Assembly (NCBI GenBank): GCA_002839745.1
Contig: PGYQ01000001.1
Coordinates: forward strand, 16,775-80,774
Direction: 5' to 3'
DNA: 64,000 nt
Origin: Candidatus Kuenenbacteria bacterium HGW-Kuenenbacteria-1
GTDB lineage: Bacteria; Patescibacteriota; Patescibacteriia; UBA2591; PGYQ01
Numbering within the stretch: the stretch's first letter is position 1; each line of letters begins with the position of its first letter. Of this stretch, positions 1,361 to 44,730 are shown one piece after another. The position numbers and the translations under genes were made by a program. The notes beneath the pieces are model-generated. The model ran no database searches. It had not been told where the DNA came from and was given only the letters and a program-made list of their open reading frames with translations.

Positions 1361-1410
1361 AAAAAGTTAAAAGTTAAAAGTTGAAAGTTAAAAGTTGAAA
1401 GTTGAAAATT
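1361..1410. repeat. Heptanucleotide tandem repeat (AAAGTTA/AAAGTTG, about 7 units)
   Basis: aaaaagttaaaagttaaaagttgaaagttaaaagttgaaagttgaaaa directly after tRNA-Cys and abutting the cysS start. Confidence 0.8.
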
Positions 1411-2866: not shown

Positions 2867-4030
2867 ATGAAAAAAATAATTGCCTTATCTATTATATTTT
2901 TTTGTTTTTTATTATTTCCATTTTCTTTTTCGCAAGCAATTGTCCAAAAAACAGGAGAAAGTATTCGTCTTAATTCAAATGAAATTATTGATGATGATTT
3001 TATTGCTTTCGGACAAAATATAGAAATTAATGGATTAATTAAGGGTGATCTTTTTGTTTTTGCCAAAAATATTACCATCAATGGAAATATTGAAGGAGAT
3101 GTTATTGGTTTTACTCAACAAATTACAATTAATGGAAATGTAAATGGGAATATTAGAATTTTAGGAGAAACTATAAATTTTAATAATCAAATAGATAAAA
3201 ATGTTAATGTTTTGGGACAAAATATTATTTTTTCTGAGAAAAGTAAGATTAAAAAAAATTTATTAATTTTGGGAGAAAGCATTGATGTAAATGGAAAAAT
3301 TGATGGCAATATTTTTGGCAATGGGAAAAAAATTTCTTTGGCCGGAGAAAATAATAAAAATGTTTATTTAAATACAACAGCTCTTGTTTTACAACCTAAA
3401 ACAATTATTAATGGAAATTTAGATTATGTTGCGTCTCAAAAAGCGGAAATAAAATCTGGCGCTCAAATTTTAGGAAAAACTTTGTATAAAATTCCATCCT
3501 TTGAAAAACAAGAAAAAAAATATACTATTGCTTTTTTCTTTTGGAAATTAGTTTCTTTGTTTGGGTTTTTAATTATTGGTTTAATTTTTATTTCTTTATT
3601 TCCTAAGAAAACATTGGAAATAATTAATCAAATTAAAAAAACGCCATGGAAAAATTTAGGCTATGGAATAATTTGTTTTATTGTTGTGCCGATAATCGCG
3701 CTTTTTTTAATTGCTATGCTCATTGGAATTCCATTGGCTTTTATTGGAATGTGTTTATATTTCATCTTTTTATATTTAGCTCAACTTTTTGTTGGTTTAA
3801 CAATTGGCGTAGAAATAGATAAAAAAATTAGAAAACCAAAAGAGATCGTTTTGCCAGCTGGCGAACAAGAACAAAAAAATAATTTAATTTGGCCAATGAT
3901 TTTAGGAATGATTATTTTAATAATTTTATTTAACATTCCTTATTTAGGTTGGGCTTTTAAATTAATAGTTATTTGTATGGGATTGGGAGGAATGATAGGG
4001 ATAGTTAAAAGTTCAAAGTGTAAAGTGTAA
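2867..4030 (+). CDS. Hypothetical secreted/membrane protein with bactofilin-like beta-helical I-x-I-N-G-N-I-x-G-D repeats and C-terminal multi-TM domain
   Basis: Signal peptide MKKIIALSIIFFCFLLF; repeats ITINGNIEGDV/ITINGNVNGNI/IDVNGKIDGNI with ~18-aa period; four hydrophobic helices at C-terminus; last codons are heptamer repeats (KSSKCKV). Confidence 0.5.
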   Translation: MKKIIALSIIFFCFLLFPFSFSQAIVQKTGESIRLNSNEIIDDDFIAFGQNIEINGLIKGDLFVFAKNITINGNIEGDVIGFTQQITINGNVNGNIRILGETINFNNQIDKNVNVLGQNIIFSEKSKIKKNLLILGESIDVNGKIDGNIFGNGKKISLAGENNKNVYLNTTALVLQPKTIINGNLDYVASQKAEIKSGAQILGKTLYKIPSFEKQEKKYTIAFFFWKLVSLFGFLIIGLIFISLFPKKTLEIINQIKKTPWKNLGYGIICFIVVPIIALFLIAMLIGIPLAFIGMCLYFIFLYLAQLFVGLTIGVEIDKKIRKPKEIVLPAGEQEQKNNLIWPMILGMIILIILFNIPYLGWAFKLIVICMGLGGMIGIVKSSKCKV

Positions 4031-4117
4031 AGTTAAAGAAATTTTAAATTTTTCTGTTATCTTAATCGAGGTTATATTTTGGTTTTGACACTCAAATATA
4101 ACAATAATTCTTTGCGC

Positions 4118-4189: not shown

Positions 4190-5701
4190 ATGAAAAATCA
4201 AATGAAAGTTTTATTTGTAGGAGGGGAGTTGACGCCTATTGCTAAAGTAGGCGGATTAGCTGATGTTATTGGTGCTTTACCAAAGGCATTAAAAAAACTC
4301 GGAGTGGATGTAAAAATTATTATTCCAAAATACGGAATCATTGACGAAAAAAAATATCCTCTAAAAAAAATTGCTAGTGATATAAAAATTCCTTTTTATA
4401 ATCAAGAGGAATTAGTTAATGTTTATTCCTGTTTTTTGCCAGACACTCAAAGACAAGTAGAGGTTTATTTGATTGAAAATTTAAAATATTTAAGTGAGGG
4501 CGAAATTTATTTTACCATTGACGCTTCTTCATCCGGCGCGCTTAATGAATGTCAACGGTTTGTTTTTTTTACCAAATGCGTTGCGGAAATTTTTTTAAAT
4601 AACAAAATAGATTGGCAACCAGATATTTTTCATTGTCATGATTGGCACACTGGATTTTTACCCTTATTAATAAAAATTCAATCTGTTAATTTACAAATGA
4701 AACAAAAAACTTTATTTACAATTCATAATTTTGCTTATCAAGGTAAATATAATCCTCAAGAAATTTTAAAAATGCTTAATTTAAAAGAACAAGATTGGCC
4801 TTGTTTGCGAGAAAGAACAAAAAATCAATTTAAAGATCTCAATGCCGTTCAGCAAGCCATTTTAAACGCAGATTTAATTAATACTGTGAGTCCAACCTAC
4901 GCGCAAGAAATTTTAACCCCAGAATTTGGTGAAAAATTAGAAAATAATTTACAAAAAAGAAAGGCTAATCTTTCTGGTATTCTTAATGGGATTGATGTGG
5001 ATTTTTTTAATCCAGCAACAGATTTAACTTTAATAAAAAATTATGGATTAGAAATGCCTAAAGAAAAAATATTAGAAAATAAAAAAGAAAACAAAGAGTA
5101 TCTTCAAAAAAATTGTAATTTAAAAATTGATTCTAATGTGCCTTTGATTGGTTTAATTTCGCGAGTTGCTGAGCAAAAGGGATTTGATTTAATTATTAAA
5201 ATTTTTGATAAATTAATGGAATTAGATTTACAATTTGTTTTATTAGGCACGGGCGATCCAAAAATGGAAAAAACATTAGCAGAATTGTCTTTAAAATATC
5301 CTGATAAATTTTCTTGTAATCTTAAATTTAATACAAAAGTAGCTCAGCAAATTTATGCTGGTTCGGATATATTTTTAATGCCTTCACATTTTGAACCATG
5401 TGGTTTGGGTCAAATGATTGCCATGCGATATGGAACTACACCAATCGTCAGAGCCTGTGGTGGGCTAAAAGATACAGTTGAAAATTATTCATTACAAACT
5501 ATTCATTATAAATTAGGGATGGGTTTTGTTTTTGAAAAGTATGAAGCAAATGAGATGTTAAATTCAATCAAAGAGGCGTTAGAGATTTATAAAGATAAAA
5601 AGGCTTGGCAAGAAATAATTTTTCATAATATGCGACAAGATTTTTCTTGGGAAAACTCAGCTAAAAAATATTTAGAATTATACAAAAAACTCCTAAAATA
5701 G
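4190..5701 (+). CDS. glgA: Glycogen synthase (ADP-glucose type, GT5)
   Basis: KVGGLADVIGALPKAL signature near N-terminus; HCHDWHTG; start assigned to ATG 4190 (MKNQMKVLFVGGE) rather than ORF start 4079. Confidence 0.85.
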   Translation: MKNQMKVLFVGGELTPIAKVGGLADVIGALPKALKKLGVDVKIIIPKYGIIDEKKYPLKKIASDIKIPFYNQEELVNVYSCFLPDTQRQVEVYLIENLKYLSEGEIYFTIDASSSGALNECQRFVFFTKCVAEIFLNNKIDWQPDIFHCHDWHTGFLPLLIKIQSVNLQMKQKTLFTIHNFAYQGKYNPQEILKMLNLKEQDWPCLRERTKNQFKDLNAVQQAILNADLINTVSPTYAQEILTPEFGEKLENNLQKRKANLSGILNGIDVDFFNPATDLTLIKNYGLEMPKEKILENKKENKEYLQKNCNLKIDSNVPLIGLISRVAEQKGFDLIIKIFDKLMELDLQFVLLGTGDPKMEKTLAELSLKYPDKFSCNLKFNTKVAQQIYAGSDIFLMPSHFEPCGLGQMIAMRYGTTPIVRACGGLKDTVENYSLQTIHYKLGMGFVFEKYEANEMLNSIKEALEIYKDKKAWQEIIFHNMRQDFSWENSAKKYLELYKKLLK

Positions 5702-5712: not shown

Positions 5713-5821
5713 TTAGAAAAGTTTTAAGGAATTTTATTTTTTTAATTTAATATTAGTTCCAAGAGCTTTTATTAATTGAAAAAATGTTGGAAAAGTTTTA
5801 TTAAGTTTGCATATTAAAAAT

Positions 5822-5895
5822 TGGCTCGGGGACAGGGATTCGAACCCCGATCTTAAGGACCAGAACCTGACGTCCTACCATTAGACGATCCCCGA
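5822..5895 (-). tRNA. tRNA-Gln (anticodon CUG) with encoded CCA
   Basis: Minus-strand TCGGGGA...TCCCCGA acceptor, GGGGTTCGAATCCCT T-arm, anticodon loop TTCTGGT; anticodon stem TCAGG/CCTTA has one C-T mismatch. Confidence 0.65.
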
Positions 5896-5972: not shown

Positions 5973-7568
5973 TTATTCTACAATTTTTCCATCAAATACA
6001 TTTAAAATATTATTTAAAAATTTATCTTGATTTTCTTCAAGAAAACCATTTTTTATAGGAAGAATTTCTGTTTTAAGAATAACTTTTTGTTTTAAAATAT
6101 CTTCTAAAATATTTTCAATTATTTCTTTATTTTTTCTATCATTAATTCTTTCCTGATAAAACTTATGTTCAAATCCAATTTGCAATATATTTTCTTTAAA
6201 GGAAAGTAACTCTGTTGTTCTTAAAAAAGTAAAAATAGAATGATTATGTTTTTTAATTTTTTCTAAAATTTTTCCCCATTTTTCTTTAATTTCTTCTAAT
6301 TTAATTTTAGATTCTTTATTTAAGGTTTCAGATTTCAGATTTTCTGTTTCATTATTTTTTGCTTTTCGCTTTTCGCTTTTCGCTTCATTGTTTTCTGGGC
6401 GTACGCAAGGGTATGCCCTTACAAAATTGTTTTTTTGTTCCATTGTTTTATTGTTTTCTTGTTCTATTATTTCATCATTTTCTATAATTTCTAAAATAGC
6501 TATTTCTAATGGCAATTGAATAATATCTGTTTCGCCTAATTCTTTTTGTGTTTTAATTAAAATTTCAATTGCTTTGCTTAATTTTTTTATATTGATTTTT
6601 TCCGTTAATTTTAAAATTTTCTTTTCAATTTCTTTATCCATTTCTTGAGAGAAGTTGTTAAGGTTGAGATCTATTTTTATTAATAAAATTTTTCGCATTA
6701 TTTCAATACAATCATTAATAAAATATTTTAAATCAATCCCTTGTTCTACTAATTTATTAATTAAAATTAAAGTGGCTTTTTTATTGTTTTCAAAAAGATG
6801 TTCTAATAATTCTAAAATTAAATTAAAGTTAGAGTGTGGGAGAATCAATTCGGCTTGTTCAAGATTTATTTCTTTTTCTCCTAAAACTAAAATTTGACCA
6901 AGAAGACTTTCGGCATTTCGAAGATATCCTTGGCTTTGATGAGCGATATTTTTTATAATTTGAGGATCAACTTTTATTTTTTCTAAATCACAAATTTTTT
7001 CTAATTTTTTTGTAATTTCTAAAAAATTAATTTTTTTAAAATTAAATTGTTGGCAACGAGAAATAATTGTTTCTGGGATTTTGTGAATTTCAGTGGTGGC
7101 TAAAATAAAAATAATATGAGCCGGTGGTTCTTCTAAAATTTTTAAAAGAGCGTTAAAAGCGGAAAGAGAAAGCATATGAGCTTCATCAATAATAAAAATT
7201 TTATAATTAAGATTATGAGGGATAAAACGGGAATTTTCAATAATATTTTCTCGAACATTATCTACTCCTGTTTGTGAAGCAGCATCAATTTCCATTATAT
7301 CTAAAGATTTTCCTTCGCTAATTTCATTACAAAAAGTACATTTATTACAAGGTTCTGCATCTTTTTTATTTCTGTTTTTACAATTAATCGCTTTGGCTAA
7401 AAGACGAGCGCAAGTGGTTTTTCCTGTTCCTCTAGGCCCAGAAAATAAATAGGCATGATTAATTTGATTAGTTTTAATTTGATTTTCCAAAGTAATTTTA
7501 ATATGATCTTGACCAACCAAATCTTTAAAAGTTTGTGGTCTATATTTTCGGTAAAGTGTTAAATTCAT
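5973..7568 (-). CDS. dnaX: DNA polymerase III subunit gamma/tau
   Basis: YRKYRPQTFKDLVGQDH...GPRGTGKTT Walker A, zinc module CNKCTFC; C-terminal half carries in-frame heptamer and palindromic insertions. Confidence 0.9.
   Translation of the reverse strand: MNLTLYRKYRPQTFKDLVGQDHIKITLENQIKTNQINHAYLFSGPRGTGKTTCARLLAKAINCKNRNKKDAEPCNKCTFCNEISEGKSLDIMEIDAASQTGVDNVRENIIENSRFIPHNLNYKIFIIDEAHMLSLSAFNALLKILEEPPAHIIFILATTEIHKIPETIISRCQQFNFKKINFLEITKKLEKICDLEKIKVDPQIIKNIAHQSQGYLRNAESLLGQILVLGEKEINLEQAELILPHSNFNLILELLEHLFENNKKATLILINKLVEQGIDLKYFINDCIEIMRKILLIKIDLNLNNFSQEMDKEIEKKILKLTEKINIKKLSKAIEILIKTQKELGETDIIQLPLEIAILEIIENDEIIEQENNKTMEQKNNFVRAYPCVRPENNEAKSEKRKAKNNETENLKSETLNKESKIKLEEIKEKWGKILEKIKKHNHSIFTFLRTTELLSFKENILQIGFEHKFYQERINDRKNKEIIENILEDILKQKVILKTEILPIKNGFLEENQDKFLNNILNVFDGKIVE
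6397..6418. repeat. GC-rich palindromic element (gggcgtacgcaagggtatgccc) inserted in-frame in dnaX
   Basis: Near-identical to the intergenic copy at ~28199-28220 (gggcgtacccttgcgtacgccc); encodes RAYPCVRP in DnaX linker. Confidence 0.6.
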
Positions 7569-8691: not shown

Positions 8692-8726
8692 ATTTAAGAA
8701 ATTAAAAATTATAAATTAAAAATTAA

Positions 8727-12387: not shown

Positions 12388-12603
12388 AAGATAGAATTTT
12401 TTAAATTTTAAATTTTAAATTATAAAAACGAAAAATATAACTATATATAACATAACTTATTTAATCTATCAAGATAAAAACATTTTAAAATAAATAGATT
12501 ATTAAAATTTGCTTTGTAATTATGTTTATAGTATAATTTTATTAAGAGATTAGGTTTTAAAAATTTAAAATTGTAAAAATTCTCTCTTAATTTTATTTAT
12601 TCT

Positions 12604-14781
12604 ATGTTTAATGCAAAAGATTCTAAAAATAATATTCAAGTTGCGAGTTTTTTAATTAATGATCCCAAATTAACTGAAATATGGGGAAATGTTTATATTG
12701 TTGAGCCTTCAAATGAACGAGAAAGAAAAAGGGGGCAATTAATAATTTTAGCCGCTCTTTCTGATTTTTCTTCTCAAAATCCTCAAAAAGAAATTATTGA
12801 GCGTATTATTAAAGAAATTCAAACTAATTATTATAGTTCAAACATAAACAAAGAAGAGTTAAACATTGAAGAAATATTTGAAGCAACTCTTCAAAAAGCT
12901 AATCAAGAATTTGCTAAAATAATAAGAGTGAGTCAAAGTAATTGGTTCAAAAAAATAAATATATTGGTTGCTGTGGTTAAAAATGAGTTTATTTATTTTG
13001 CTCAAATAGGATCGCTTTTTTCAGCTTTTTTAATTTATGAAGATAAAATAATTGATATTATTGAAAAAGTTAGAGTAAATAATATTTCTATTAATCCTTT
13101 AAAATTATTTTCTTCTATTACTAATGGTTCAATTAGCACTAATAATAATATTTTTTTTACTTCTTCCGGAATTTTTGATTTAATTAGTTCGGAAAAAATA
13201 AAAAAAATTATAAATAATTGGGAAGCTAATTCAGCTATTTCAAAATTTCAAAATCTTCTTAGTAATTCAAAAATTAAAAATATTTTAGCCGGAGTAATAA
13301 TTAAAAATGTTTCATCTGATAAAAAAAATATAATAGAAAATATTGAATTAATTCCAACCAATAATCCTTTATTTGATTTAGCTAAACAAAAAGAAAAAAC
13401 AGATAGAATTCTTAGAGCTTCATTTTTTTCTAAAATTCAAAAAAAATTGTTAAATTTATTTTCTCATTGCATTTCTTGTTTATTTTATTTTTTTAAAAAA
13501 ATATTTATTCATTCAAAAAGAAAATTCTATATACAAAACAGGATTGATTCGTCAGTTAAAAGACAAGAAATACCTAAAGAAATTTCTAATATTTCAACTT
13601 TTCCAAAGAAAAGAAATCTATTATTTATTAGTCATTCTCCTTTTGTGTTAAAATGGATAAATAAATTTAGATCCCTTTCTTATTTTAGTAAAATATTATT
13701 TATTATTTTTTTAATTTTGGCTTTATTTTTTATATCTAGTCTTATTTGGTTAGCTAGAAAACAAAGCAATGACAATGAAATTAAAAAAAATAATCAATTA
13801 ATTGAAAAGATAGAAAATAAACAAAACGCCGTGGGCGCTGCTTTAATTTATAAAGACGAGGAAAAAGCAAAAAAGAATTTAGAAGAAATTTTAAAATTAT
13901 CTAAAGAATTACCAAAAGATTCTCCAGAAAATTTAGCAAAACTTCAAAAAATTCAAAAAGAAACAGAAATTCAGTTAAATAAATTAAGAAATATTATTAG
14001 CATTGATAATCCTTTGATAATTGCTGATTTAAATCTTTTGGATTTTAAAAATAAAAATTTTAATTTAGTTCTTTTAAATCAACAACTTTATTTTTATAAT
14101 CAAGATAATTCAATTTTTAAATTTGATTCTAAAGAAAAAAAGATTTTTTTTGTTTTTAATAATTTGCAGGAAAATAAACAATTTGAAAACGCAAAACAAT
14201 ATGATAAAAATTCTATTTTATTTTACTATAACACTAATGAATTAGCCAAATTTAATGTTTTAAATAAAGATTTAAAATTAATGGGAATTAAATTACCCAT
14301 TAAAACTAATAAAATTAAAGATTTTGTTGTTTATTCTCAAAAAATTTATTCATTAGATTCAGAAAATAATCAAATTTATAAATACAATTCAACTCAAACT
14401 GAAAAAAGTAATTGGATTAAAGATGAACAAATTAATTTAAATGAAGGAGTTTCATTGGCGATTGATGGTTCTATCTATGTTTTAAAATCTAATGGAGAAA
14501 TTTTAAAATTTCTTCAAGGGAAAAAACAAGAGTTTGCTTTAAAAAATCTTGAACCAGCATTAGAAAATCCAACTAAAATTTGGACGGATTTTAATTCTAA
14601 ATACATTTATATTTTAGAACCATCAACTAAAAGAATAATAATTTCTGATAAACAAGGCAAGGTTCAAAAACAATATACTTCTGAAAAATTTATCAAATTG
14701 CAAAATTTTGTTGTTGATGAAGAAAAAAATAAACTTTATATTCTTGCTGATAATAAAGTTTATGAGTTGAAGATTGAATAA
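12604..14781 (+). CDS. Hypothetical 725-aa protein with central TM helix, divergent from mreB
   Basis: No recognisable catalytic motif; single hydrophobic span ILFIIFLILALFFISSLIWLA splits N- and C-terminal domains. Confidence 0.4.
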   Translation: MFNAKDSKNNIQVASFLINDPKLTEIWGNVYIVEPSNERERKRGQLIILAALSDFSSQNPQKEIIERIIKEIQTNYYSSNINKEELNIEEIFEATLQKANQEFAKIIRVSQSNWFKKINILVAVVKNEFIYFAQIGSLFSAFLIYEDKIIDIIEKVRVNNISINPLKLFSSITNGSISTNNNIFFTSSGIFDLISSEKIKKIINNWEANSAISKFQNLLSNSKIKNILAGVIIKNVSSDKKNIIENIELIPTNNPLFDLAKQKEKTDRILRASFFSKIQKKLLNLFSHCISCLFYFFKKIFIHSKRKFYIQNRIDSSVKRQEIPKEISNISTFPKKRNLLFISHSPFVLKWINKFRSLSYFSKILFIIFLILALFFISSLIWLARKQSNDNEIKKNNQLIEKIENKQNAVGAALIYKDEEKAKKNLEEILKLSKELPKDSPENLAKLQKIQKETEIQLNKLRNIISIDNPLIIADLNLLDFKNKNFNLVLLNQQLYFYNQDNSIFKFDSKEKKIFFVFNNLQENKQFENAKQYDKNSILFYYNTNELAKFNVLNKDLKLMGIKLPIKTNKIKDFVVYSQKIYSLDSENNQIYKYNSTQTEKSNWIKDEQINLNEGVSLAIDGSIYVLKSNGEILKFLQGKKQEFALKNLEPALENPTKIWTDFNSKYIYILEPSTKRIIISDKQGKVQKQYTSEKFIKLQNFVVDEEKNKLYILADNKVYELKIE

Positions 14782-15029: not shown

Positions 15030-15063
15030 AAATAATTTTATTTATTTTTTTAATATTTTTTTT

Positions 15064-15675
15064 ATGACAATAGAACATCCGAAAAAAGAAAGAACGCTGG
15101 TTATTATTAAGCCAGATGGCGTTCAACGATCATTAATGGGCGAAATTATTAATCGTTATGAAAGAGTTGGGCTTAAATTAGTAGCTATAAAAATGCTTAT
15201 TCCAAACGTTGAACATATAGAAAAACATTATACCTTGGATCCAAATTGGCGAAGAATTACGGGAGAAAAAACAATAAAAGGATATATAGCTAAAGGGTTA
15301 ACGCCACCATCCGAAGATCCATTTGAAATTACGGCCGTGATTTTAAAAAATTTAAAAACATATATGTCTAGCGGACCAGTAATTGCAATGGTTTGGCAAG
15401 GAGCTCATGTAGTTCAAATTATAAGAAAATTAACTGGCGGAACTGAACCTTTGACATGTGATGTAGGAACAATTCGTGGAGATTTTGTTTTGGATTCATA
15501 TCAAATGACTGATGCTGATGGGCGAGCAATTAGAAATTTAATTCATGCGTCTGGAACAGTGGGAGAAGCCGAAACTGAAATTAATCATTGGTTTAAAAAA
15601 GAAGAAATTATGGATTATCGTTTAGTACAAGAACAAATTTTATATGATGTTAATTTAGATGGGATTAAAGAATAA
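15064..15675 (+). CDS. ndk: Nucleoside diphosphate kinase (with ~45-aa insertion)
   Basis: RTLVIIKPDGVQRSLMGEIINRYERVGLKLVAIKM, catalytic His in NLIHASG. Confidence 0.85.
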   Translation: MTIEHPKKERTLVIIKPDGVQRSLMGEIINRYERVGLKLVAIKMLIPNVEHIEKHYTLDPNWRRITGEKTIKGYIAKGLTPPSEDPFEITAVILKNLKTYMSSGPVIAMVWQGAHVVQIIRKLTGGTEPLTCDVGTIRGDFVLDSYQMTDADGRAIRNLIHASGTVGEAETEINHWFKKEEIMDYRLVQEQILYDVNLDGIKE

Positions 15676-18310
15676 ATTTATGTTTAAAAAAGAAAATAAA
15701 ATAATTGATTTAAGCGCTGAAAGAAAAAAAAGAGAAAAAGAAATAGAAGAAGCAAGAAAAAAAATGAATTTTGGGAATAATTTAAAAGTTGAAATTATAA
15801 AAGAAAAAATTGAAAAAATTTCAAAAAAATCTAAATTGAAAGAGTTTTTTAATTTAATTGGATTTTTAAAAATTAAACGAAAACAAATTAAAGAAAAAAA
15901 ATTAGAACAAAAAGTATCTGAAAAAAATGAACCAATTATAAGAGATCAATCTAAAAAATTACAATTGCTATTAAAACTTTGTAATTCTTTTATTTCAGTG
16001 CCTATTTATCTTTTGGTTTTTTTTATTCCTTTATTTTTTCTTCCTTTTACTTTTGAAATTTTTGAATTTAATAAACAATATTTACTTTGGTTTTTAGTAA
16101 CAATAGCTCTAATAGCTTGGTTAATTAAAATGGCGATTATAAAAAAAGGATTTAAATTTTTGAGAAATCCTTTAAATATTCCTGTTTTAATTTTAATGAT
16201 AATTTTTGCTTTGGCTACTTTTTTTAGTTTAGATAGATATTCTTCAATTTGGGGAGTTTATGGTTGGTTTTCGGGAAATCTTTTAGAGATATTAAGTTTG
16301 GGGATGCTATTTTTTATCATAATTAATAATATTAATGAAACCAATTTAACTATTAATCGTTTAAAGAATGTTTTTTTATGCTCTGGATTTTTTGTTATTT
16401 TAATTAGTTGTCTTTCAATTTTTGGTTTTCTTTCAAAAGGAATAGCGCAAATTTCTTGGTTAAATAATTTCGTATCTGAAATTAATTTATCTAATTTTAA
16501 TTCAATCGGTTCATGGGAAACTTTGAGTATTTATTTAGTAATAATTATTATTTTGATTTTAGGGAAAAAACCGCAAAATTTATTATTTATTATTAATAAT
16601 TACTCATTACTTGTTATTTGTTGTTTATTACTTATAGGAATTAATTTTACTTTGGCATGGATTGTTTTATCAATTACCATAGGATTATTTTTTGTTTTTA
16701 AAATAGTAAAAAAAACAGAAAAAGAAAATAGTTTTAAAATTTATTTAATTAGTATTATTTTTATTATTGCTTTTATTTCTATTTTTTATCCATTAAATAA
16801 ATTTATTAAAATAGATTTAAATAAAGAAGTAAGATTAGAAAATAAAATTAGTTGGCAAATTACTGCTGACACAATAAAGCATCATCCAATTTTAGGCACA
16901 GGCCCAAGCACTTTTATTTATAATTTTTCTAAATATCATTCAGCAGAATTTAATCAAAATAAAAATTGGCAAATTCGTTTTGGAAAAAGTGGAAATTATA
17001 TTTCAGAATTAATAGTAAGTATTGGAATTTTGGGAATTTTGGTTTATTTAATTTTAATGGGAATTTTGTTTAAAAATATTTTTCGTTTACCATTTACCAT
17101 TTATTGTTTTCCGGTATTTTCTCTTTTTATTGCTCAATTTTTTTATCAAGGGAACACGGTTTTAAATTTTTGTTTTTGGTTTTTTCTTAGTCTTTTAATA
17201 GCTGATTATAGAGAAATAAAACCAGAAATTTTTAAATATCAAAAAATTGGATATAAAATTTTAAAAAATGTTCCAGAATTTTCTATTATTTTAAATTTAG
17301 TTATTATTTTAATTTTTTTTATTTTAATAGGAGGAGGTTATTTTGCTGTTCAAAAATATAAAGCAGAAGTGTTAATAAAATATGGGTTAAAATCAAAACA
17401 ACCGATGGAAAATTTTTATGAACAAAAAATTGAAATTTTAAAACAAGCTTTAATTTTAAATAGCGAACAAGTGTATTATCAAATAAATTTAATTCAAGCT
17501 TATTTAGATAAAATTTCAAACGAATCTCTAATTTTAAAAAATCAACAGTCTTATGAAAAAATGAAAGAAACAGTTAGTTTAGGAATTGATCAAATTAAAA
17601 AAGTTCAAAAAATAGCTCCATTTAATATAGAAACAGCAGAAGTTCAAGGGCGGTTTTATAAAGATATTGAAACAATGACAGAAGGAACAATTCCTTTGGC
17701 AATAGAAGGAGTAATCAAGGCTATAGAATTAGAACCCAATAGTCCTGTTTTACATTTAGAATTAGGGAAAATGTATGCAGATTTGGCGGAAAAAAATAAA
17801 GAAAAAGATTTAGAAAAAGAATCTCAAAAAACTATTTTAGAAAAAGAATCTTTTATAGAAAAAATAAAAAAAATGAGTTCATCTGAGTTAATTGCGTTAG
17901 CACAAAAAGAATTTCAAAAAGCTTTAGAATTAAAAAAGAATTTTTGGCCAGCTGAATTATATTTATCTCTTTCTTATGAAAAACAAGGAGACGTCAAAAA
18001 AGCCATTTCTGGTTTAGAAAAAATAACAATAGACTTGGATAAGGAAAAAAAAATTGAACCAATTGTTCTTTTTGAATTAGGTAGACTTTATTTTAATCAA
18101 GAAAAAACAGACGAGGCGATTAAAATATTTCAAATAGCTATTCAAATTTCACCTAATTATTCCAACGCTCTTTATGGTTTAGCAATCGCTTATGAGAAAA
18201 AAGAACTTTACGATCAAGCATCACAAATTTTTCTAAAACTTCAAGAATTAAATCCAAATAACAAAGGAATAGAAAGAAAACTTTTAGAATTAAAAGCAAA
18301 AAATAATTAA
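15659..18310 (+). CDS. O-antigen ligase (Wzy_C)-like polytopic membrane protein with C-terminal TPR repeats
   Basis: More than 10 TM helices followed by TPR-like helical repeats (ALYGLAIAYEKKELYDQASQIFLKLQELNPNN). Confidence 0.6.
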   Translation: MGLKNKFMFKKENKIIDLSAERKKREKEIEEARKKMNFGNNLKVEIIKEKIEKISKKSKLKEFFNLIGFLKIKRKQIKEKKLEQKVSEKNEPIIRDQSKKLQLLLKLCNSFISVPIYLLVFFIPLFFLPFTFEIFEFNKQYLLWFLVTIALIAWLIKMAIIKKGFKFLRNPLNIPVLILMIIFALATFFSLDRYSSIWGVYGWFSGNLLEILSLGMLFFIIINNINETNLTINRLKNVFLCSGFFVILISCLSIFGFLSKGIAQISWLNNFVSEINLSNFNSIGSWETLSIYLVIIIILILGKKPQNLLFIINNYSLLVICCLLLIGINFTLAWIVLSITIGLFFVFKIVKKTEKENSFKIYLISIIFIIAFISIFYPLNKFIKIDLNKEVRLENKISWQITADTIKHHPILGTGPSTFIYNFSKYHSAEFNQNKNWQIRFGKSGNYISELIVSIGILGILVYLILMGILFKNIFRLPFTIYCFPVFSLFIAQFFYQGNTVLNFCFWFFLSLLIADYREIKPEIFKYQKIGYKILKNVPEFSIILNLVIILIFFILIGGGYFAVQKYKAEVLIKYGLKSKQPMENFYEQKIEILKQALILNSEQVYYQINLIQAYLDKISNESLILKNQQSYEKMKETVSLGIDQIKKVQKIAPFNIETAEVQGRFYKDIETMTEGTIPLAIEGVIKAIELEPNSPVLHLELGKMYADLAEKNKEKDLEKESQKTILEKESFIEKIKKMSSSELIALAQKEFQKALELKKNFWPAELYLSLSYEKQGDVKKAISGLEKITIDLDKEKKIEPIVLFELGRLYFNQEKTDEAIKIFQIAIQISPNYSNALYGLAIAYEKKELYDQASQIFLKLQELNPNNKGIERKLLELKAKNN

Positions 18311-18313
18311 AAT

Positions 18314-20356
18314 ATGAATAAATTACTCACAATTTTTATTATTACTTTATTTTTTGGTTTCGCATTTCCAATAATGGCTTTAGTTCCAAATGATACTTAT
18401 TATTCAAAACAATGGTATTTACCGATAATTAAAGCAGATAAGGCTTGGGAAATTGCTAATAATTATTCTTCAGAAATTATTGTCGCTGTTTTAGATGCTG
18501 GTGTTGATATTAATCATCCAGATTTAAAAAATAATATTTGGACTAATCCTAATGAAATAAAAGGAAATGGAATTGATGATGATAAAAATGGTTATATAGA
18601 TGATATTAATGGTTGGGATTTTATTGAAGATTCAAATGATCCAAATCCTAAATTTCTTTCTAAATTTACTAAAGAAGCTATTAATCATGGGACAATAATA
18701 ACTGGAATAATAGCTGCTGAAGGCAATAATAATCAAGGAATAATTGGAATAAGTCCTAAAGCAAAAATTATGTGTTTGCGAGTTTTAAATGAGCAAGGAA
18801 ATGGAAACGACAGTTATATTGCTAAAGCTGTTGATTATGCTGTTAAAAATAAAGCGCGTGTTTTAAATTTAAGTTTTGTTGGAAGTAAAAAATCAGAACA
18901 ATTATCAAAAGCAATTGAACGCGCTTGGAAAGCAGGATTAATTATTGTTACAGCAGCAGGAAATGGTGATAAAAAATCAGAAACTCAAATACAAGGGATA
19001 AATTTAGATGAAATACCTTTATATCCAATTTGTTATAATGAGCAAGAAAATAAAATAATTGGAGTAGGCGCTGTTGACAATAAAGATCAAAAGACAAATT
19101 TTTCCAATTTTGGAAAAAATTATGTGGATATTTCTGCGCCGGGAATTGATTTTTATGGAACTCAGGTTTATAATTCCAATGAAGCGAATTATAAAGAATA
19201 TTATGGAGGATTTTATTCTGGAACTTCAATAGCTGCACCTCAAGTTACAGCAACAGCTGCTTTAATTTGGAGTCAATTTCCAAATTTAACAAATAAAGAA
19301 GTTCAAGATTTTATTTTAGATGGAGTTGATAATATTAGTGAACAAAATCCTGATTATAAAGATAAATTAGGAAAAGGAAGATTAAATGTTTATCAAGCTT
19401 TAAAATTGGCTCAAAGTTCCGAAGAAATTTTAAAAGGTAAAAAAATTTTTATAACATCTGATAAAGACAATAAAGTATATTTTAAAAAATTTAATATTGA
19501 TACTAATTTAAATTATCAACAAATAATTTATAGTCAACATTTTGATGGTGGCATTAATATGGCAATAGGAGATATTGATAAAGATGGAAAAGATGAAATT
19601 GTTACTGGTCCAAATATAGGCGAACCTTTAATAAAAATTTTTGATACAAATGGAAATTTAAAATTTCAATTTTTGGCTTATGATTTAGATTATAATAAAG
19701 GTATTAGTGTGGCAATAGGAGATATTGATGGAGATGGAAAAGATGAAATTATTACTGGTCCTAAGTCAGGCGAACCTTTAATAAAAATTTTTGATACAAA
19801 TGGAAATTTAAAATTTCAATTTTTGGCTTTTAATTCAAAATTTAAAGGCGGGGTTAATATAGCAACAGGCGATATTAATGGTGATAAACGAGATGAATTA
19901 ATTGTTAGTATTGCTTCGCAAGAAAGTTCTTATGTGAGAGTTTATAAATTACAAGAAAATGATTTATATCTTGAATTTCAAACAATGATTTTTAATTCAA
20001 AATTTAAAGGCGGGGTTAATATAGCAACAGGCGATATTAATGGTGACAAACGAGATGAATTAATTGTTAGTATTGCTTCGGAAGAAAGTTCTTATGTAAG
20101 AGTATATAAAATACAAGAAAATGATTTATATTTTGAATTTCAATTTATGGCTTATAGTTTTGATTTTAAAGGTGGGGTTAATATAGCAACAGGCGATATT
20201 GATGAAGACGGAAAAGATGAAATTATTACTAGTCAAAGAGAAGCAGGACAATCAATAGTGAAAATTTTTGATAAAAATGCTAATTTAAAAACCGAATTTA
20301 AATCTTTTGATTCTGAATTTCAAGGAGGAATTAATGTGGCAATTGGTAGTTTGTAG
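18314..20356 (+). CDS. Secreted subtilisin-like serine peptidase (S8) with C-terminal FG-GAP/VCBS-like repeats
   Basis: Signal peptide; catalytic triad motifs DAGVDINHPDL, HGT, GTSIAAPQV; repeated GDIDGDGKDEIITGP units. Confidence 0.85.
   Translation: MNKLLTIFIITLFFGFAFPIMALVPNDTYYSKQWYLPIIKADKAWEIANNYSSEIIVAVLDAGVDINHPDLKNNIWTNPNEIKGNGIDDDKNGYIDDINGWDFIEDSNDPNPKFLSKFTKEAINHGTIITGIIAAEGNNNQGIIGISPKAKIMCLRVLNEQGNGNDSYIAKAVDYAVKNKARVLNLSFVGSKKSEQLSKAIERAWKAGLIIVTAAGNGDKKSETQIQGINLDEIPLYPICYNEQENKIIGVGAVDNKDQKTNFSNFGKNYVDISAPGIDFYGTQVYNSNEANYKEYYGGFYSGTSIAAPQVTATAALIWSQFPNLTNKEVQDFILDGVDNISEQNPDYKDKLGKGRLNVYQALKLAQSSEEILKGKKIFITSDKDNKVYFKKFNIDTNLNYQQIIYSQHFDGGINMAIGDIDKDGKDEIVTGPNIGEPLIKIFDTNGNLKFQFLAYDLDYNKGISVAIGDIDGDGKDEIITGPKSGEPLIKIFDTNGNLKFQFLAFNSKFKGGVNIATGDINGDKRDELIVSIASQESSYVRVYKLQENDLYLEFQTMIFNSKFKGGVNIATGDINGDKRDELIVSIASEESSYVRVYKIQENDLYFEFQFMAYSFDFKGGVNIATGDIDEDGKDEIITSQREAGQSIVKIFDKNANLKTEFKSFDSEFQGGINVAIGSL
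19829..20152. repeat. Near-identical ~162-bp tandem duplication inside the S8 peptidase repeat domain
   Basis: Two consecutive copies encoding FNSKFKGGVNIATGDINGDKRDELIVSIAS[Q/E]ESSYVRVYK[L/I]QENDLY. Confidence 0.6.
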
Positions 20357-20417
20357 AAAATTTTAAATTTGTTATTTTCTAAAAACCTAAAAAAGCTAAT
20401 TTCTAATTTCTATTTTT

Positions 20418-21565: not shown

Positions 21566-22120
21566 ATGTTTGAAATACGTATTCATGGTCGAGGTGGACA
21601 GGGAGCAAAATCATCTGCTCAATTTATTGCCGAAGCGGCCTTAAAAGAAGGAAAATTTATTCAAGCTTTTTCTGAATATGGACCTGAACGATCAGGCGCT
21701 CCTGTTGTTGCTTATGTCCGAATTTCTGATCAAGAAATTAAAACTCATGAACCTGTGATTTGTCCAAGTGTTATTTTGGTTTTAGATGAAACTTTAATAA
21801 AAGCCGTTGATGTAGCTAAGGGATTAAAGAAAGATGGAATTTTAATAATTAATTCATCAAAAAATGCTGATGTTCAATTTCGTCATCTTTTTCAAAATAT
21901 AAAAATTTTAGATGCTTCAAGTATTGCTTTAGAATTTATTGGAAAAGACAAACCCAATACTGCAATGTTGGGCGCATTGGTCAAAATAACGCAAGTAGTA
22001 AAATTAGAAAATTTAATTAAGGTAATTAAAAAACATTTTTTAATTAAAGTGGGGGAGCAAGGTGCTAAAGCAAATATAACAGCAGTAAAGAAAGGATACT
22101 TAAGAAATTATAAATTATGA
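21566..22120 (+). CDS. porC: Pyruvate:ferredoxin oxidoreductase gamma subunit
   Basis: MFEIRIHGRGGQGAKSSAQFIAEAALKEGKFIQAFSEYGPERSGAP matches PorG/PorC N-terminus. Confidence 0.85.
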   Translation: MFEIRIHGRGGQGAKSSAQFIAEAALKEGKFIQAFSEYGPERSGAPVVAYVRISDQEIKTHEPVICPSVILVLDETLIKAVDVAKGLKKDGILIINSSKNADVQFRHLFQNIKILDASSIALEFIGKDKPNTAMLGALVKITQVVKLENLIKVIKKHFLIKVGEQGAKANITAVKKGYLRNYKL

Positions 22121-22149
22121 ATTATAAATTAAATCGTAAATCTAAAATT

Positions 22150-22420: not shown

Positions 22421-22948
22421 ATGGAAACAATTTTAAATAATGAAAAAGAAAGTGAGTTTAAAGAAGCAAGAGAAATAGCAGTAAAATTTTTTTTGGAAAA
22501 ATTAGGTTTGATTAAAGAATTTAAAGAATTAATAGAAGTTGGGGAGACAACAATAATTAAAGAAGCTGATGTAATTATTTATCAAAATAGTAATAAAAAT
22601 TTAGTAGAAAATATTAGATTAAAAAACATAGAAATGCCTTTTGAAATAGGATTGGGGGATATAGAAGATAGAAAAATAGACAAAACTCATCTTTCTATTG
22701 TGATAGAAGTAGAAGAAAAATTAAAACAAGCAATTCGCGTAAATATATCAGGTTTATTATGGTTAGATAAAAATAAAAAAATAAATCTTGCATTTAATAG
22801 AGAGGAATATGAGAAATCATTATTAGGGTTGCTTGATGCTAAATATTTTCAAGAAACATTAAATCGTTATGAAATTGAAAAATTATGGATGTGCGGAGAA
22901 AAAGAAAATAAAGAAATTTTTGAAAGAATGAAAATTAAATATTTTTAA
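22421..22948 (+). CDS. Hypothetical 175-aa protein inserted between porD and porA
   Basis: No recognisable motif beyond a weak D...EVEEK (possible PD-(D/E)xK-like) arrangement; Glu/Lys rich. Confidence 0.4.
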   Translation: METILNNEKESEFKEAREIAVKFFLEKLGLIKEFKELIEVGETTIIKEADVIIYQNSNKNLVENIRLKNIEMPFEIGLGDIEDRKIDKTHLSIVIEVEEKLKQAIRVNISGLLWLDKNKKINLAFNREEYEKSLLGLLDAKYFQETLNRYEIEKLWMCGEKENKEIFERMKIKYF

Positions 22949-22956
22949 AAATATAA

Positions 22957-24120
22957 ATGAAAAATGAAAAAATAAAATTAAATATTAAAGCATTGACTGG
23001 AGCTGAGGCTGTGGCTGAAGCAATGAGACAAATAAATCCCAGCGTTGTTTCTATTTATCCAATTACTCCTCAAACACCTATTATAGAAAAATTTAGTAAA
23101 TTTGTGGCTAATGGATTGGTTGATTCAGAAATAATTACTGTTGAATCTGAGCATTCAGCAATGAGTGCAGTTGTAGGAGCTCAAGCCAGTGGAGTACGAG
23201 CAATGACTGCCACTTCTTCGCAGGGGTTAGCTTTAATGTGGGAAATTCTTGGAATAGCTAGTGGTTTACGTTTACCAATTGTGATGCCAGTAGTTAATCG
23301 AGCTTTGTCAGCGCCATTAAATATTCATTGCGATCATTCTGATTCAATGGGTTGTCGAGATTTTGGTTGGATACAAATTTATTCAGAAAATAATCAAGAG
23401 GCTTATGAAAATATTTTATTAGCAATGAAAGTGGCTGAGCAAGTAAAATTGCCAGCTATGGTCATGCAGGATGGATTTATTACTTCACATTGCGTGGAAG
23501 CAGTAAAAATTTTACCAGATAAAATTGTTCAAAAATTTTTAGAAAAATATCAGCCAGCGTATTCATTATTAGATATAAAGAATCCTATTACTGTTGGTTC
23601 ATTTATTTCACAGCCATGTTTTTTTGAAATAAAATGTCAGCAAATCAAAGCTATGGAACAAGTGAAAAAAGTTTATTTACAAACTGGAAAAGAATTTTCA
23701 AGAATTACTAAACGAAAATATGAATATTTTGAAAAATATAAATTAGATGATGCTGAGTATGGAATTGTTGTGATGAGTTCTACAGCTGGTACAGTTAAGG
23801 CAGTGGTTGATAAAATGCGAAGTATAGGGTTTAAAGTGGGATTATTAAAACCAATTTTATTTAGGCCATTTCCTTATCAAGAGATAGCGCAAGCCTTAGC
23901 GCATCTTAAAGCAGTTGCCATTTTAGATCGTTCAGTTTCTGTAGGAGCTTTCCCTCCGCTTTACAGCGAAATTGTCAATTGTCAATTGTTAAATGTTAAA
24001 TGTCAAAGTTATATTTTTGGTTTGGGCGGGCAAGATATTTTTGAAAAAGATATTGAAAAAGTTTTTATGGATTTGTTAAATAAAAAAATTAATAAGAAAG
24101 AAATTAAATATATTAAGTAA
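22957..24120 (+). CDS. porA: Pyruvate:ferredoxin oxidoreductase alpha subunit
   Basis: 387 aa, position after porD; contains in-frame heptamer repeat near C-terminus (VNCQLLNVKCQSY). Confidence 0.85.
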   Translation: MKNEKIKLNIKALTGAEAVAEAMRQINPSVVSIYPITPQTPIIEKFSKFVANGLVDSEIITVESEHSAMSAVVGAQASGVRAMTATSSQGLALMWEILGIASGLRLPIVMPVVNRALSAPLNIHCDHSDSMGCRDFGWIQIYSENNQEAYENILLAMKVAEQVKLPAMVMQDGFITSHCVEAVKILPDKIVQKFLEKYQPAYSLLDIKNPITVGSFISQPCFFEIKCQQIKAMEQVKKVYLQTGKEFSRITKRKYEYFEKYKLDDAEYGIVVMSSTAGTVKAVVDKMRSIGFKVGLLKPILFRPFPYQEIAQALAHLKAVAILDRSVSVGAFPPLYSEIVNCQLLNVKCQSYIFGLGGQDIFEKDIEKVFMDLLNKKINKKEIKYIK

Positions 24121-24202: not shown

Positions 24203-25126
24203 ATGGATTTAAAAATATTAACTCAAAAAATTCAAGAACAAAATCGTTTTGTTTGTGGACATCGGACGTGCGCTGGTTGCGCTATTCCAATTATTGTTAG
24301 AACAATTTTGTCTGCCAGTAAAGATCCAGTGGTTGTTGTAAGCGCTACTGGTTGTCTTGAAATAGTTTCTAGCGTTTATCCTCAAACATCGTGGAATGTT
24401 CCATGGATGCACAATGCTTTTGAAAATACTTCTGCGACAATTTCTGGAATTGAATGTGCCTATTCTTTTTTAAAGAAAAAAGGGAAATTAAAAAAGAAAA
24501 TAAATTTTGTTGTTTTTGGCGGAGATGGCGGAACCTATGACATTGGATTGCAATCTTTGTCTGGCGCTTTGGAACGAGGGCATAATTTTGTTTATGTTTG
24601 CTATGACAATGAAGCCTATATGAATACTGGAAATCAACGATCTTCTTCAACGCCATATGGCGCGAGCACGACTACTACGCCAGAAGGAAAAACACATCAT
24701 GGGAAAGAAGTTTTTAAAAAAGATTTAATTAAAATTGTTGCGGCTCATAATATTCCTTATGTTGCTCAATCCGCTGTTCATTATTGGTCTGATTTATATC
24801 AAAAAGCTGAAAAGGCTTTTCAAGTTAATGGTCCGGCAGTGTTAAATGTTTTTTCGCCTTGTCAATTAAATTGGAAATTTCCTTGTGATTTAACAATTCA
24901 AATTTCAAAAATGGCTGTTGAAACTTGTTTGTGGCCTTTGTATGAAATAGAAAATAAACAATATAAATTAAATTATCAACCAAGAGAAAAGTTGCCAGTT
25001 GAAGAATTTTTAAAAATGCAAAAAAGATTCTCCCATCTTTTCAAACCAGAAAATAAAAAAATTATTAAAACAATCCAAGAGAAAGTGGATGAGAAATGGG
25101 AGGAGTTAAGAAATTATAAATTATAA
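24203..25126 (+). CDS. porB: Pyruvate:ferredoxin oxidoreductase beta subunit (TPP-binding)
   Basis: GHRTCAGCAIP and GGDGGTYDIG TPP motifs. Confidence 0.85.
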   Translation: MDLKILTQKIQEQNRFVCGHRTCAGCAIPIIVRTILSASKDPVVVVSATGCLEIVSSVYPQTSWNVPWMHNAFENTSATISGIECAYSFLKKKGKLKKKINFVVFGGDGGTYDIGLQSLSGALERGHNFVYVCYDNEAYMNTGNQRSSSTPYGASTTTTPEGKTHHGKEVFKKDLIKIVAAHNIPYVAQSAVHYWSDLYQKAEKAFQVNGPAVLNVFSPCQLNWKFPCDLTIQISKMAVETCLWPLYEIENKQYKLNYQPREKLPVEEFLKMQKRFSHLFKPENKKIIKTIQEKVDEKWEELRNYKL

Positions 25127-25340
25127 ATTAAGAAACCCCCTTAATCCCCCTTATCAGGGGGACAGAATTGATTAGCCCCTTCGATAAAGAAGTTGGGGAT
25201 TTAATTAGCCCCCTTGATAAAGGGGGTTGGGGGATTTCTTAAAGACAAAAGAAACCCCCTTAATCCCCTTTATCAGGGAGACTTTACGGAAGAAGGATTT
25301 TCAAAATTATTTTTATTTTTTGTAGAACATCCCAACCGTA
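25127..25340. repeat. Cluster of GC-rich palindromic repeats (aaaccccYttaatcYccYttatcagggRgac and attagcccccttgataaagggggttggggg families)
   Basis: Three or more hairpin units; shares tttttatttttttgtagaacatcc block and the tcccYttRtcagggagac unit with 28440-28556; unit also found in-frame at 39436-39476. Confidence 0.65.
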
Positions 25341-25411
25341 TTAGCTATCCTTGCTAAAATTGTAAAAGCTAGTTTAATATCAATTTAAAATTTAAAATTC
25401 ATAATTATTTT

Positions 25412-32034: not shown

Positions 32035-32330
32035 ATAATGAAAAATGAAAATTAATAATCAGATATTATCATACTTTTTCTCATATTTCAAATTATGTCA
32101 AAGTAATGTCAAAGCAATTTAGAAATGTCATACCTTGATAAATTAATTAAGTTAAAAGTTGAAAGTTAAATGTTATAATTTCTTAAGAATAATTAGAAAA
32201 TTTTGATTTGACATTTTTTAAATCCGTGTTTTAATTAAAATTAATTTTAAACAGATAAAATTGATTTAATAATACGAAAACAGTTCGTATATAAACGAGT
32301 TAGACGAAATAATTTTTTTATCTCAATAAT

Positions 32331-32895: not shown

Positions 32896-33159
32896 TTTAT
32901 TTTTGCTATAATCCACTTTGGATTACGAAATGTAATTTAAGAAAGCGCCAAATGCAAAATTATAAATCCTAATCCGCTAGCTGGCGGACTTAAAAAAGTT
33001 GAAAGTTAAAAGTTAAAAGTTAAAAGTTATTGTATTCGTTTTGCTCATAAATAATAATAAAATTATTTGGTGCGAAGTAACACCTTAATTAAAAATTTAT
33101 AATTTCTTGCAAAGTATCTATTTTATTTATAATTTATAATTTAAAATTTATAATTTCTT

Positions 33160-43293: not shown

Positions 43294-43426
43294 TTTAATT
43301 ATTAGAAGGATGTTTGGTAATATTAATAATATAAATTATAATAAGGAAGTGATTTTTAAAAAAGGATTTGATTTAGTTTTTAAAAATAATTTTTAATTTA
43401 ATTTTTAATTTTTAATTTTGTTTTTT

Positions 43427-44728: not shown

Positions 44729-44730
44729 TT

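Follow-up and report, generated by a model that had tools for sequence, protein, structure and literature searches.

An excess of heptanucleotide tandem repeats in a Candidatus Kuenenbacteria genome, with the mark of a frame-preserving filter inside genes

The DNA considered here (the window) is a 64-kb stretch, at 27% GC, of a 156,768-nt contig of Candidatus Kuenenbacteria bacterium HGW-Kuenenbacteria-1, a groundwater bacterium of the Patescibacteria, or Candidate Phyla Radiation (CPR), whose tiny genome is available as a metagenome-assembled genome. Pfam identifies among its genes those for DnaX, the Por subunits PorA, PorB, PorC and PorD, MiaB, an XerC-type tyrosine recombinase, CysS, RecA, TopA and a weakly matching bactofilin/DUF8173 protein, in agreement with the gene names given in a first-pass annotation of the sequence. 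Scattered between and within these genes are short tandem arrays of 7-nt units, with 2.4-6.6 copies each, which are our subject. We called them with Tandem Repeats Finder and with a simple period scanner that was applied equally to relatives and controls; the scanner yields 24 period-7 arrays in the window, or 25 when the array at 32149 is counted. The survey as a whole covers these 64 kb of the host genome and ~0.5 Mb from relatives. All 15 positions listed in the first-pass annotation hold period-7 tandem arrays, with coordinates off by a few bases at most; within one listed stretch, 32095-32175, period 7 applies to 32149-32175, but 32095-32118 has period 11.

Comparison with composition-matched models, which that annotation had proposed, gives a clear result. 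Thirty dinucleotide-preserving shuffles of the window contained a mean of 0.83 period-7 arrays and a maximum of 3, against the 24 observed, while the scanner found 0-3 arrays at each of the periods 4-6 and 8-14 in the window itself. Exact period-7 runs, evaluated with an order-3 Markov model, tell the same story: at least two copies were found 42 times with 16.5 expected, at least 2.6 copies 19 times with 0.18 expected, and at least three copies seven times with 0.0 expected. Exact runs at all other periods match the Markov expectation, apart from a codon-related excess at period 6. These values were measured within the window, and the contigs of the closest relatives show a like excess. The heptamer excess is thus real, is not an effect of composition, and is specific to period 7 within the range of periods 4-15.

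A skeptic might still attribute the arrays to chance, low-complexity composition or faulty assembly, pointing to the low GC content of the genome, to arrays as short as 17-19 nt (about 2.5 copies), which individually come close to chance, and to the approximately 16 exact two-copy heptamers expected in any case. Such an attribution is hardly credible given a 30- to 100-fold excess over shuffles and Markov models at period 7 only, the lack of arrays in equally AT-rich controls, and the fact that arrays inside conserved genes are in frame. Nor is assembly a likely source, as three independent assemblies agree base for base at the arrays; besides the one analyzed here, these are the JGI (L112) and Logan (L113) assemblies of the host organism, both consensus sequences.

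The arrays are far from evenly placed. Of the window, 12.7% is intergenic, 4.7% counts as gene edge (no more than 30 nt from an end of a gene) and 82.5% lies in the interiors of coding sequence (CDS). Seventeen of the 25 arrays are nevertheless intergenic or at gene edges, together 17.5% of the window, leaving eight in CDS interiors (binomial p=3e-8). The first-pass annotation had stressed that arrays are retained inside essential genes; the more telling fact is the reverse, a roughly 10-fold depletion from CDS interiors.

Twelve arrays lie in spacers. The longest, (AAAAGTT/AAAGTTG) x6.6 at 1362-1411, fills the spacer from the tRNA-Cys gene (1288-1359) to the cysS start (ATG at 1424), and an imperfect (AAATTAA) array of ~4 copies at 8699-8726 is the entire spacer between the frr stop (8727) and an rseP-like start (8691), both on the minus strand. 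Others stand just before genes: (TTTTAAA) x3.3 at 12399-12421, 11 nt upstream of the minus-strand mreB start (12387); (CTAATTT) x2.4 at 20396-20412, 5 nt upstream of an epimerase start (20418); (AATTTAA) x2.6 at 25382-25399, 12 nt upstream of the gatB start (25412); and (ATTTATA) x4.6 at 33125-33156, which ends 3 nt before the leuS ATG (33160) and whose unit junctions form TATAAT. A further array, (AAAGTTG/AAAGTTA) x5 at 32995-33029, is found 130 nt upstream of leuS; (AAGTTAA/AAGTTGA) x3.9 at 32149-32175 occupies a divergent intergenic region (32035-32330), and (TTTAATT) x3.3 at 43397-43419 is intergenic, upstream of xerC. The (TTTATAA) x5.9 array at 44730-44770 starts 2 nt after the tRNA-Arg gene (44654-44728), upstream of secY, and is directly followed by (TTTTGCA) x2.6 at 44775-44792; finally, (AAAATTG) x2.9 at 55982-56001 ends 7 nt before the tRNA-Leu gene (56009). 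We considered a special association with tRNA genes, three of five of which adjoin arrays, and rejected it because without the arrays the spacers there would be only ~14-65 nt, so that adjacency is forced.

The remaining edge arrays, all on the plus strand, contain gene ends or starts. Four genes end inside an array: the DUF8173/bactofilin-like gene, whose extreme 3' end is (AAAGTGT) x2.7 at 4015-4033, holding the stop (open reading frame (ORF) end 4030); porC (gamma), whose stop (22120) is spanned together with the porD (delta) ATG (22117) by (AAATTAT) x3.9 at 22105-22131; porB, whose stop (25126) is held by (AAATTAT) x2.9 at 25111-25130; and recA, whose stop (60909) is held by (AATTATA) x2.6 at 60902-60919. 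Two genes start inside one, porD as just described and porA, whose start codon (22957) is overlapped by (AAATGAA) x2.4 at 22955-22971. The stop/start junction cases previously described for the por genes are therefore correct. Stop-containing units are found in 14 of 15 non-coding arrays, and here the arithmetic of the unit matters. Since 7 is coprime to 3, a run of three units presents the unit in each reading frame, and any stop-containing unit present in three or more copies closes every frame. The four genes ending inside arrays are for this reason insensitive to copy number.

Inside genes the same arithmetic works the other way: a net change must be a multiple of 3, so that three units (21 nt, seven residues) is the step that preserves frame, giving peptides with a 7-residue period. 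The long interior arrays (GAAAAGC in dnaX, AATTGTC in porA, TGTCAAA in miaB and TTCAAAG in xerC) indeed use stop-free units. In dnaX (minus strand; units given in sense) there are two arrays, (TCTGAAA) x2.4 at 6326-6342 and (GAAAAGC) x3.6 at 6361-6385, in the linker between domain III and the C-terminal domain, the latter encoding EAKSEKRKAK. A composite array on the plus strand at 23970-24003 (AATTGTC x2.6, then AAATGTT x2) lies in a loop of PorA domain II and encodes NCQLLNVKCQ. In miaB (minus strand) the array at 30238-30271 is perfect, (TGTCAAA) x4.9 in sense, and encodes SNVKCQMSNVK in a loop. In xerC (plus strand) the array at 44037-44072, (TTCAAAG) x5.1 with one mismatch, encodes FKVQSSKFKVQS in the interdomain linker. 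The peptides reported earlier for these sites (EAKSEKRKAK, VNCQLLNVKCQ, SNVKCQMSNVK and FKVQSSKFKVQS) are accurate. Three further plus-strand arrays are short and may be due to chance: (ATTTATT) x2.4 at 16578-16594 and (TTTACCA) x2.6 at 17086-17103, both inside a Wzy/TPR membrane protein gene, and (AAATTCT) x2.7 at 52470-52488 inside topA.

The interior arrays of MiaB, XerC, DnaX and PorA thus all occupy loops or linkers, and in-CDS arrays are in frame in every assembly and every relative examined. Their lengths are also constrained. For the 77 arrays of the window and ten related loci taken together, those longer than 20 nt measure 31-37 nt in 11 of 14 interior cases and in only nine of 34 non-coding cases (Fisher p=0.0013), as expected if a filter passes only a net gain of 21 nt. 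The in-gene arrays are confined to permissive loops and linkers, avoid stops, and have lengths quantized near five copies. They bear the signature of a frame-preserving filter, not of a switch.

Switches built on 7-nt units are nonetheless well known, and interior arrays acting as contingency loci, that is, as phase-variable ON/OFF switches, would be a natural suggestion. The AAGACTC heptamer in the 5' coding region of neuO allows protein to be made only at copy numbers divisible by 3 (PMC13001214), which is the arithmetic that shapes the in-CDS arrays here, and a gain or loss of one or two units would likewise switch the frame; the miaB array, moreover, is perfect over its 4.9 copies. Upstream of hmw1A and hmw2A, the copy number of 7-bp repeats tunes expression (PMC2651432). 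However, neuO and the hmw genes are individual surface or virulence loci whose tracts are long (3-53 and 13-38 copies) and for which ON/OFF populations have been demonstrated, whereas the arrays here reach at most 6.6 copies, are found at dozens of loci, affect housekeeping genes and give no hint of OFF alleles. The hosts dnaX, porA, miaB and xerC are single-copy housekeeping genes, and the arrays in them are short (at most 5.1 copies), mostly imperfect, and mid-gene rather than at the 5' end. Together with the constant maintenance of frame and the depletion from CDS interiors, this makes the contingency explanation very improbable.

Relatives reached through MiaB, CysS, PorA and PorB homology allow individual arrays to be followed between genomes. 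Only loci of related organisms serve here, as the 90%-identity protein clusters of eight array-bearing or neighboring proteins, sought as a strain series, were singletons except for PorB. At the 3' end of porB the (AAATTAT) array, 2.9 copies in the window, has ~6 copies in a relative with 90% nucleotide identity (L107) and ~1 copy in another with 88% (L108); no other site gives such clear evidence of rapid copy-number turnover. In MiaB, the array loop directly follows the invariant motif GQNVNSY and is hypervariable in both length and sequence. The 4.9 perfect copies of the window (TCAAATG in this register) compare with 3.3 copies in L081 (MiaB 73% identical), 4.9 copies with one substitution in L085 (55%) and 4.9 copies with three substitutions in L087 (57%); the array is absent from L083 (70%; protein P0006), one of a group of relatives at ~70% identity that lack it (also P0003-P0010), and still other relatives carry different periodic peptides at the loop, for example KFKIQNSKFK. 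From these copy-number changes at orthologous sites (~1, 2.9 and 6 at the porB end; 0, 3.3 and 4.9 in MiaB) it follows that the arrays behave as evolutionarily active microsatellites, as the first-pass annotation had surmised. It had added that an identical insertion conserved across distant relatives would instead indicate an ordinary low-complexity linker. That holds in part for MiaB, whose array recurs in orthologues 55-73% identical; its copy number and purity differ among them, however, and relatives at ~70% identity are without it.

Other in-CDS arrays give a more varied picture. The XerC linker array amounts to an insertion of ~13 aa relative to distant orthologues, and relatives ~80% identical have diverged K.Q-periodic linker peptides of differing lengths. 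The porA array, in contrast, is not an insertion at all, contrary to what had been supposed: the loop is equal to that of orthologues or 3 residues shorter, and relatives 84-86% identical carry related peptides there. In one PorA (P0134 of L111) an AAATTTC array does encode an additional C-terminal insertion, FQISNIKLQIL. Both dnaX arrays fall in the stretch that separates the domain III and C-terminal Pfam domains; one idea is that they arose as mutually compensating frameshifts (+7 and +14 nt), for which the arithmetic fits in a linker that is not alignable.

Protein-level selection for the SNVKCQ peptide or for some heptad-like structure was considered as a source of the periodic segments and judged unlikely: the segments are only 11-12 residues long and lie in variable loops, and unrelated periodic peptides replace SNVKCQ in closer relatives. 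Two apparent comparisons were discarded. A 70-bp difference (10 x 7) upstream of rpmA between L083 and L084, two samples of the same organism, is an artefact, a run of N in the scaffold. The counterpart of the tRNA-Cys/cysS spacer array in L088, the closest CysS relative, is not a comparable site, as it has neither the tRNA nor synteny.

How far does the trait extend? The density in the window is 24 arrays per 64 kb, or 0.375 per kb. At 73 non-CPR bacterial MiaB loci we found five arrays in 1.08 Mb (0.0046 per kb), a density ~80-fold lower, and three Clostridium loci at 26-27% GC had none in 63 kb. The closest relatives are as rich as the window or richer, ranging over 0.4-1.7 arrays per kb: L109 with five in 12.8 kb (0.39 per kb), L088 (CysS 78% identical) with six in 9.1 kb (0.66), L081 with four in 5.1 kb (0.79), L110 with 13 in 15.8 kb (0.83), L107 with two in 2.2 kb (0.91) and L111 with seven in 4.1 kb (1.7). 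By contrast, 18 loci of CysS relatives 41-69% identical (L089-L106), one of them (L096) at 28% GC, held a single array in 282 kb (0.0035 per kb). Enrichment reappears in other Patescibacteria groups, at a Paceibacterota locus (L005) and a Microgenomates locus (L007). Pooling ten enriched loci (L005, L007, L081, L085, L087, L088, L107, L109, L110 and L111), of which L005 and L007 were included because they are enriched and the other eight were chosen by homology, gives 53 arrays in 85.5 kb, or 0.62 per kb. The trait is lineage-specific and patchy within the Patescibacteria. By period, the pooled loci have 53 arrays at 7, 11 at 8 and at most four at every other; the minor period-8 excess may be compared with six period-8 arrays in the 1.08 Mb of controls.

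Such sharp patchiness among fairly close relatives (0.4-1.7 vs ~0.004 arrays per kb) might point to a dedicated, non-replicative mechanism in some Patescibacteria that lays down arrays in bursts, through a specialized polymerase, primase or reverse transcriptase, or as the footprint of a recombinase. The strictness of the period, with only the slight shoulder at 8, would suit such a device, as would the interior arrays of ~5 copies, which imply multi-unit events. We regard it as quite improbable, however: no candidate gene was identified, the units are local and diverse so that no single template could serve, the arrays lack conserved flanks, and ordinary slippage followed by selection can yield equal lengths.

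Unit diversity is considerable, with more than 50 distinct units among the 77 arrays and more than 20 in the window, which argues against any sequence-specific binding site or template. In this and other respects the arrays resemble repeats already known. Among long simple sequence repeats (LSSRs), according to accounts of a survey by Mrázek et al. (2007) given in PMC4679880 and PMC4692102, heptanucleotide repeats rank first in abundance in many prokaryotes. The LSSRs as portrayed in those accounts share much with the window: tandem 7-nt units longer or commoner than composition predicts, 7 favored among unit lengths of 5-11 nt, a sporadic phylogenetic distribution, units that are not multiples of 3 mostly in non-coding DNA, and slippage as the proposed origin. 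The examples named there (Burkholderia, Xanthomonas, Actinobacteria and cyanobacteria) are mostly GC-rich or large genomes, whereas the present host is an ultra-small CPR bacterium at 27% GC; unlike those examples, it has many A/T-rich units and about one-third of its arrays in, or at the ends of, housekeeping genes.

Several named heptamer families were compared as well. The short tandemly repeated repetitive (STRR) sequences of Calothrix and Nostoc, and the GGGAATC and GGGGAYT repeats of Xanthomonas and Nostoc, are likewise intergenic, length-variable between relatives and of unknown function, but they consist of a few defined G-rich units, some forming G-quadruplexes (PMC4692102), whereas the units of the window are diverse and A/T-rich. 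TAACTGA repeats of marine Beggiatoaceae, some cyanobacteria and Bacteroidetes occur in 2-6 tandem copies, mostly just upstream of starts and in sense orientation; as with arrays here, the unit contains stops and inside ORFs encodes a 7-residue-periodic peptide (PMC4679880). A (CTAAAAG)n family in one relative (L110) presents a similar picture. That system differs in having one dominant unit, related heptamers being rarely repeated (PMC4679880), as against the many units of the window. TAACTGA itself occurs in the window as nine single copies and never in tandem. Mazel is said to have described, in 1990, STRR units reading CCCCAGT, TTGGTCA and CAACAGT. Neither these nor GGGAATC and GGGGAYT are found even twice in tandem in the window. 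Another partial parallel is provided by the repeats of Borgs, which give rise to disordered protein regions (PMC9879509) and are also fast-evolving and locally born tandem repeats that add low-complexity peptide segments; inside ORFs, however, their units are far longer and divisible by 3, and the repeats reside on archaeal extrachromosomal elements.

The window thus displays each general LSSR feature open to testing (head-to-tail 7-nt units, excess over composition, period-7 specificity, non-coding preference and copy-number variation between species) and lacks the units of every named family; it therefore belongs to the known heptanucleotide LSSR phenomenon as an additional lineage. The literature we searched yielded no report of a heptamer excess in CPR/Patescibacteria.

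Given the observed period specificity, lineage patchiness, unit diversity, positional and frame filters (including length quantization within CDSs) and orthologous copy-number differences, we consider it probable (roughly 0.68) that the arrays are heptanucleotide simple sequence repeats produced by a lineage-specific slippage or duplication process of period 7 and then filtered by selection. The process would add and remove DNA in a 7-nt register, most likely by slipped-strand mispairing or short tandem duplication at replication, acting on whichever heptamer is locally present, and selection would then sort the products. Arrays in spacers and at gene ends would be free to lengthen and shorten. 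Those inside genes would survive only where a loop or linker tolerates them, where no frame of the unit holds a stop, and where the net length change is divisible by 3; multi-unit events would presumably be involved.

Several observations weigh against this reading. First, single-unit steps to five copies would pass through frameshifted intermediates of essential genes, so multi-unit events must be assumed, and the slippage model gives no cause for the 7-nt register. Second, the DNA of the MiaB array is better conserved between orthologues only 55-57% identical than neutral decay allows, which requires ongoing homogenization, recurrence from a shared seed, or constraint. Third, no length polymorphism was seen among the three consensus assemblies of the host, L112 and L113 being identical to the window at all 10 shared arrays. 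Fourth, certain units come up more often than purely random seeding would give. In the window AAATTAT or its complement accounts for five arrays and AAAGTTR for three or four, and AAAAG-Y-Y units are present in L007, L087, L088 and L110. The most pointed case is L110 (Kuenenbacteria GCA_016209005.1), where (CTAAAAG)n makes up seven of 13 arrays, all in sense orientation, five of which end 5-9 nt before an ATG and one directly before a tRNA; the sites are 4569-4589, 5802-5833, 6717-6740, 13512-13543, 15040-15064 and 15424-15440, the seventh being counted from the array list, and close upstream of a minus-strand gene the copies are in reverse complement. Neutral slippage does not explain this dominance of one unit in one orientation well.

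The recurrence of units may be connected with how these genes begin. A Shine-Dalgarno motif precedes only one of 50 window genes, and for many genes a TATAAT is found 8-12 nt ahead of the ATG. This suggests mRNAs that are leaderless or have a very short leader, and initiation independent of Shine-Dalgarno pairing. The (TTTATAA)n arrays contain one TATAAT per unit and (AAAGTTG)n one TTGAAA per unit. Recurrent units probably reflect amplification of the commonest spacer motifs, these being promoter-like boxes.

The same facts could be taken further, with spacer arrays viewed as selected, putative cis-regulatory promoter or leader modules that would adjust expression through their copy number. 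In nine genes of the window an array overlaps the start codon or ends within 16 nt of it, the L110 family keeps its place and sense ahead of starts and a tRNA, and precedents are at hand in the hmw1A/hmw2A repeats (PMC2651432) and in what has been proposed for TAACTGA (PMC4679880). Yet the spacers are very short, and since they total only 12.7% of the window, any array in one must adjoin a start, a stop or a tRNA. In the window, moreover, units vary from gene to gene, AAATTAT-family arrays point either way with respect to the gene downstream, the porB-end array ranges over its three copy numbers with no obvious consequence, and CDS loops, where regulation is implausible, are affected too. On this analysis a regulatory role seems rather unlikely, and it would be compatible with an origin by slippage, adding a function without replacing the origin.

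A bolder combination joins both departures: a lineage-specific factor would make multi-unit bursts, and spacer arrays would have been co-opted as the main promoter/leader modules of a largely leaderless gene expression, free of Shine-Dalgarno motifs, in some Patescibacteria. The examples that could be cited are the (CTAAAAG)n arrays before five of the 14 called genes of L110 and a tRNA (gene calls in related loci are crude, taking only ORFs of at least 80 aa with ATG starts) and the TATAAT-bearing (TTTATAA)n of the window. We think it doubtful; if true, it would mean that gene expression is tuned genome-wide by hypermutable 7-nt repeats.

Returning to slippage or duplication under selection, the finding bears on a question open since the 2007 survey, namely why bacteria prefer 7-nt tandem repeats; the sole explanation proposed so far, a hypothesis for heptanucleotide LSSRs relayed from Mrázek et al. 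(2007) in PMC4679880 and PMC4692102, ties slippage to a footprint of 7 nt for the replicative polymerase. The lineage offers a clean test bed, with tiny genomes and ~100-fold density differences between related lineages at similar GC, and its diverse units remove sequence-specific binding as a confounder. A phylogenetic profile relating repair and replication genes to heptamer density in the Patescibacteria could point to the determinant. Practical consequences follow as well, since the arrays create lineage-specific 7-residue-periodic insertions in the conserved proteins MiaB, XerC and DnaX and define the C-termini of PorB, PorC and RecA, so that annotation, alignment and phylogenomics of CPR genomes are affected. 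Arrays at the very ends of short contigs (L107 2156-2192, L087 6666-6692 and L111 3095-3112) suggest that they also break short-read assemblies, as they probably do.

A few other features of the region may be recorded. The host assemblies differ from one another only by a 1-nt indel, one mismatch and a ~57-nt variant near 37.6 kb. The last lies at 37609-37619 of the window (166-213 of L112), where the JGI assembly is ~57 nt longer, the single mismatch and the 1-nt indel being the sole differences in the rest of the 17.9-kb overlap; it has no connection with the heptamers and reflects variation in the population or in assembly. Positions 19553-20204, inside the ORF at 18314-20356, hold 150- and 162-bp tandem repeats with 84-92% identity. 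The encoded 680-aa protein has Peptidase_S8 and weak FG-GAP-type matches in the JGI record, and the repeats are an ordinary in-frame protein-domain repeat unrelated to the heptamers.

The surroundings of the por genes also vary. Between porD and porA in the por operon lies a 175-aa ORF (22421-22948) with no Pfam match. In L109 (8975-9429) and L110 (5753-6747), porA is directly followed by an uncalled stretch of 0.45-1 kb, after which the next called gene is an epimerase, so that operon architecture differs from that of the window; the L110 stretch holds several heptamer arrays and a tRNA-like stretch judged by eye. Just downstream of porB, at 25130-25283, GC-rich direct repeats (C5/G5) 33-34 nt in length form a cluster with an imperfect 27-nt inverted repeat, against the 27% GC of the genome elsewhere. 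The cluster had no Rfam match at the gathering score; possible identities are a structured RNA, a group of terminators or an element like the repetitive extragenic palindromes. The 17-mer AAACCCCCTTAATCCCC occurs twice within it and has one weak third match at 28524. In the ~90% identical relative (L107) the corresponding place directly after porB is taken, at 1812-2171, by a gene for a PF05635 protein (23S rRNA intervening-sequence protein).

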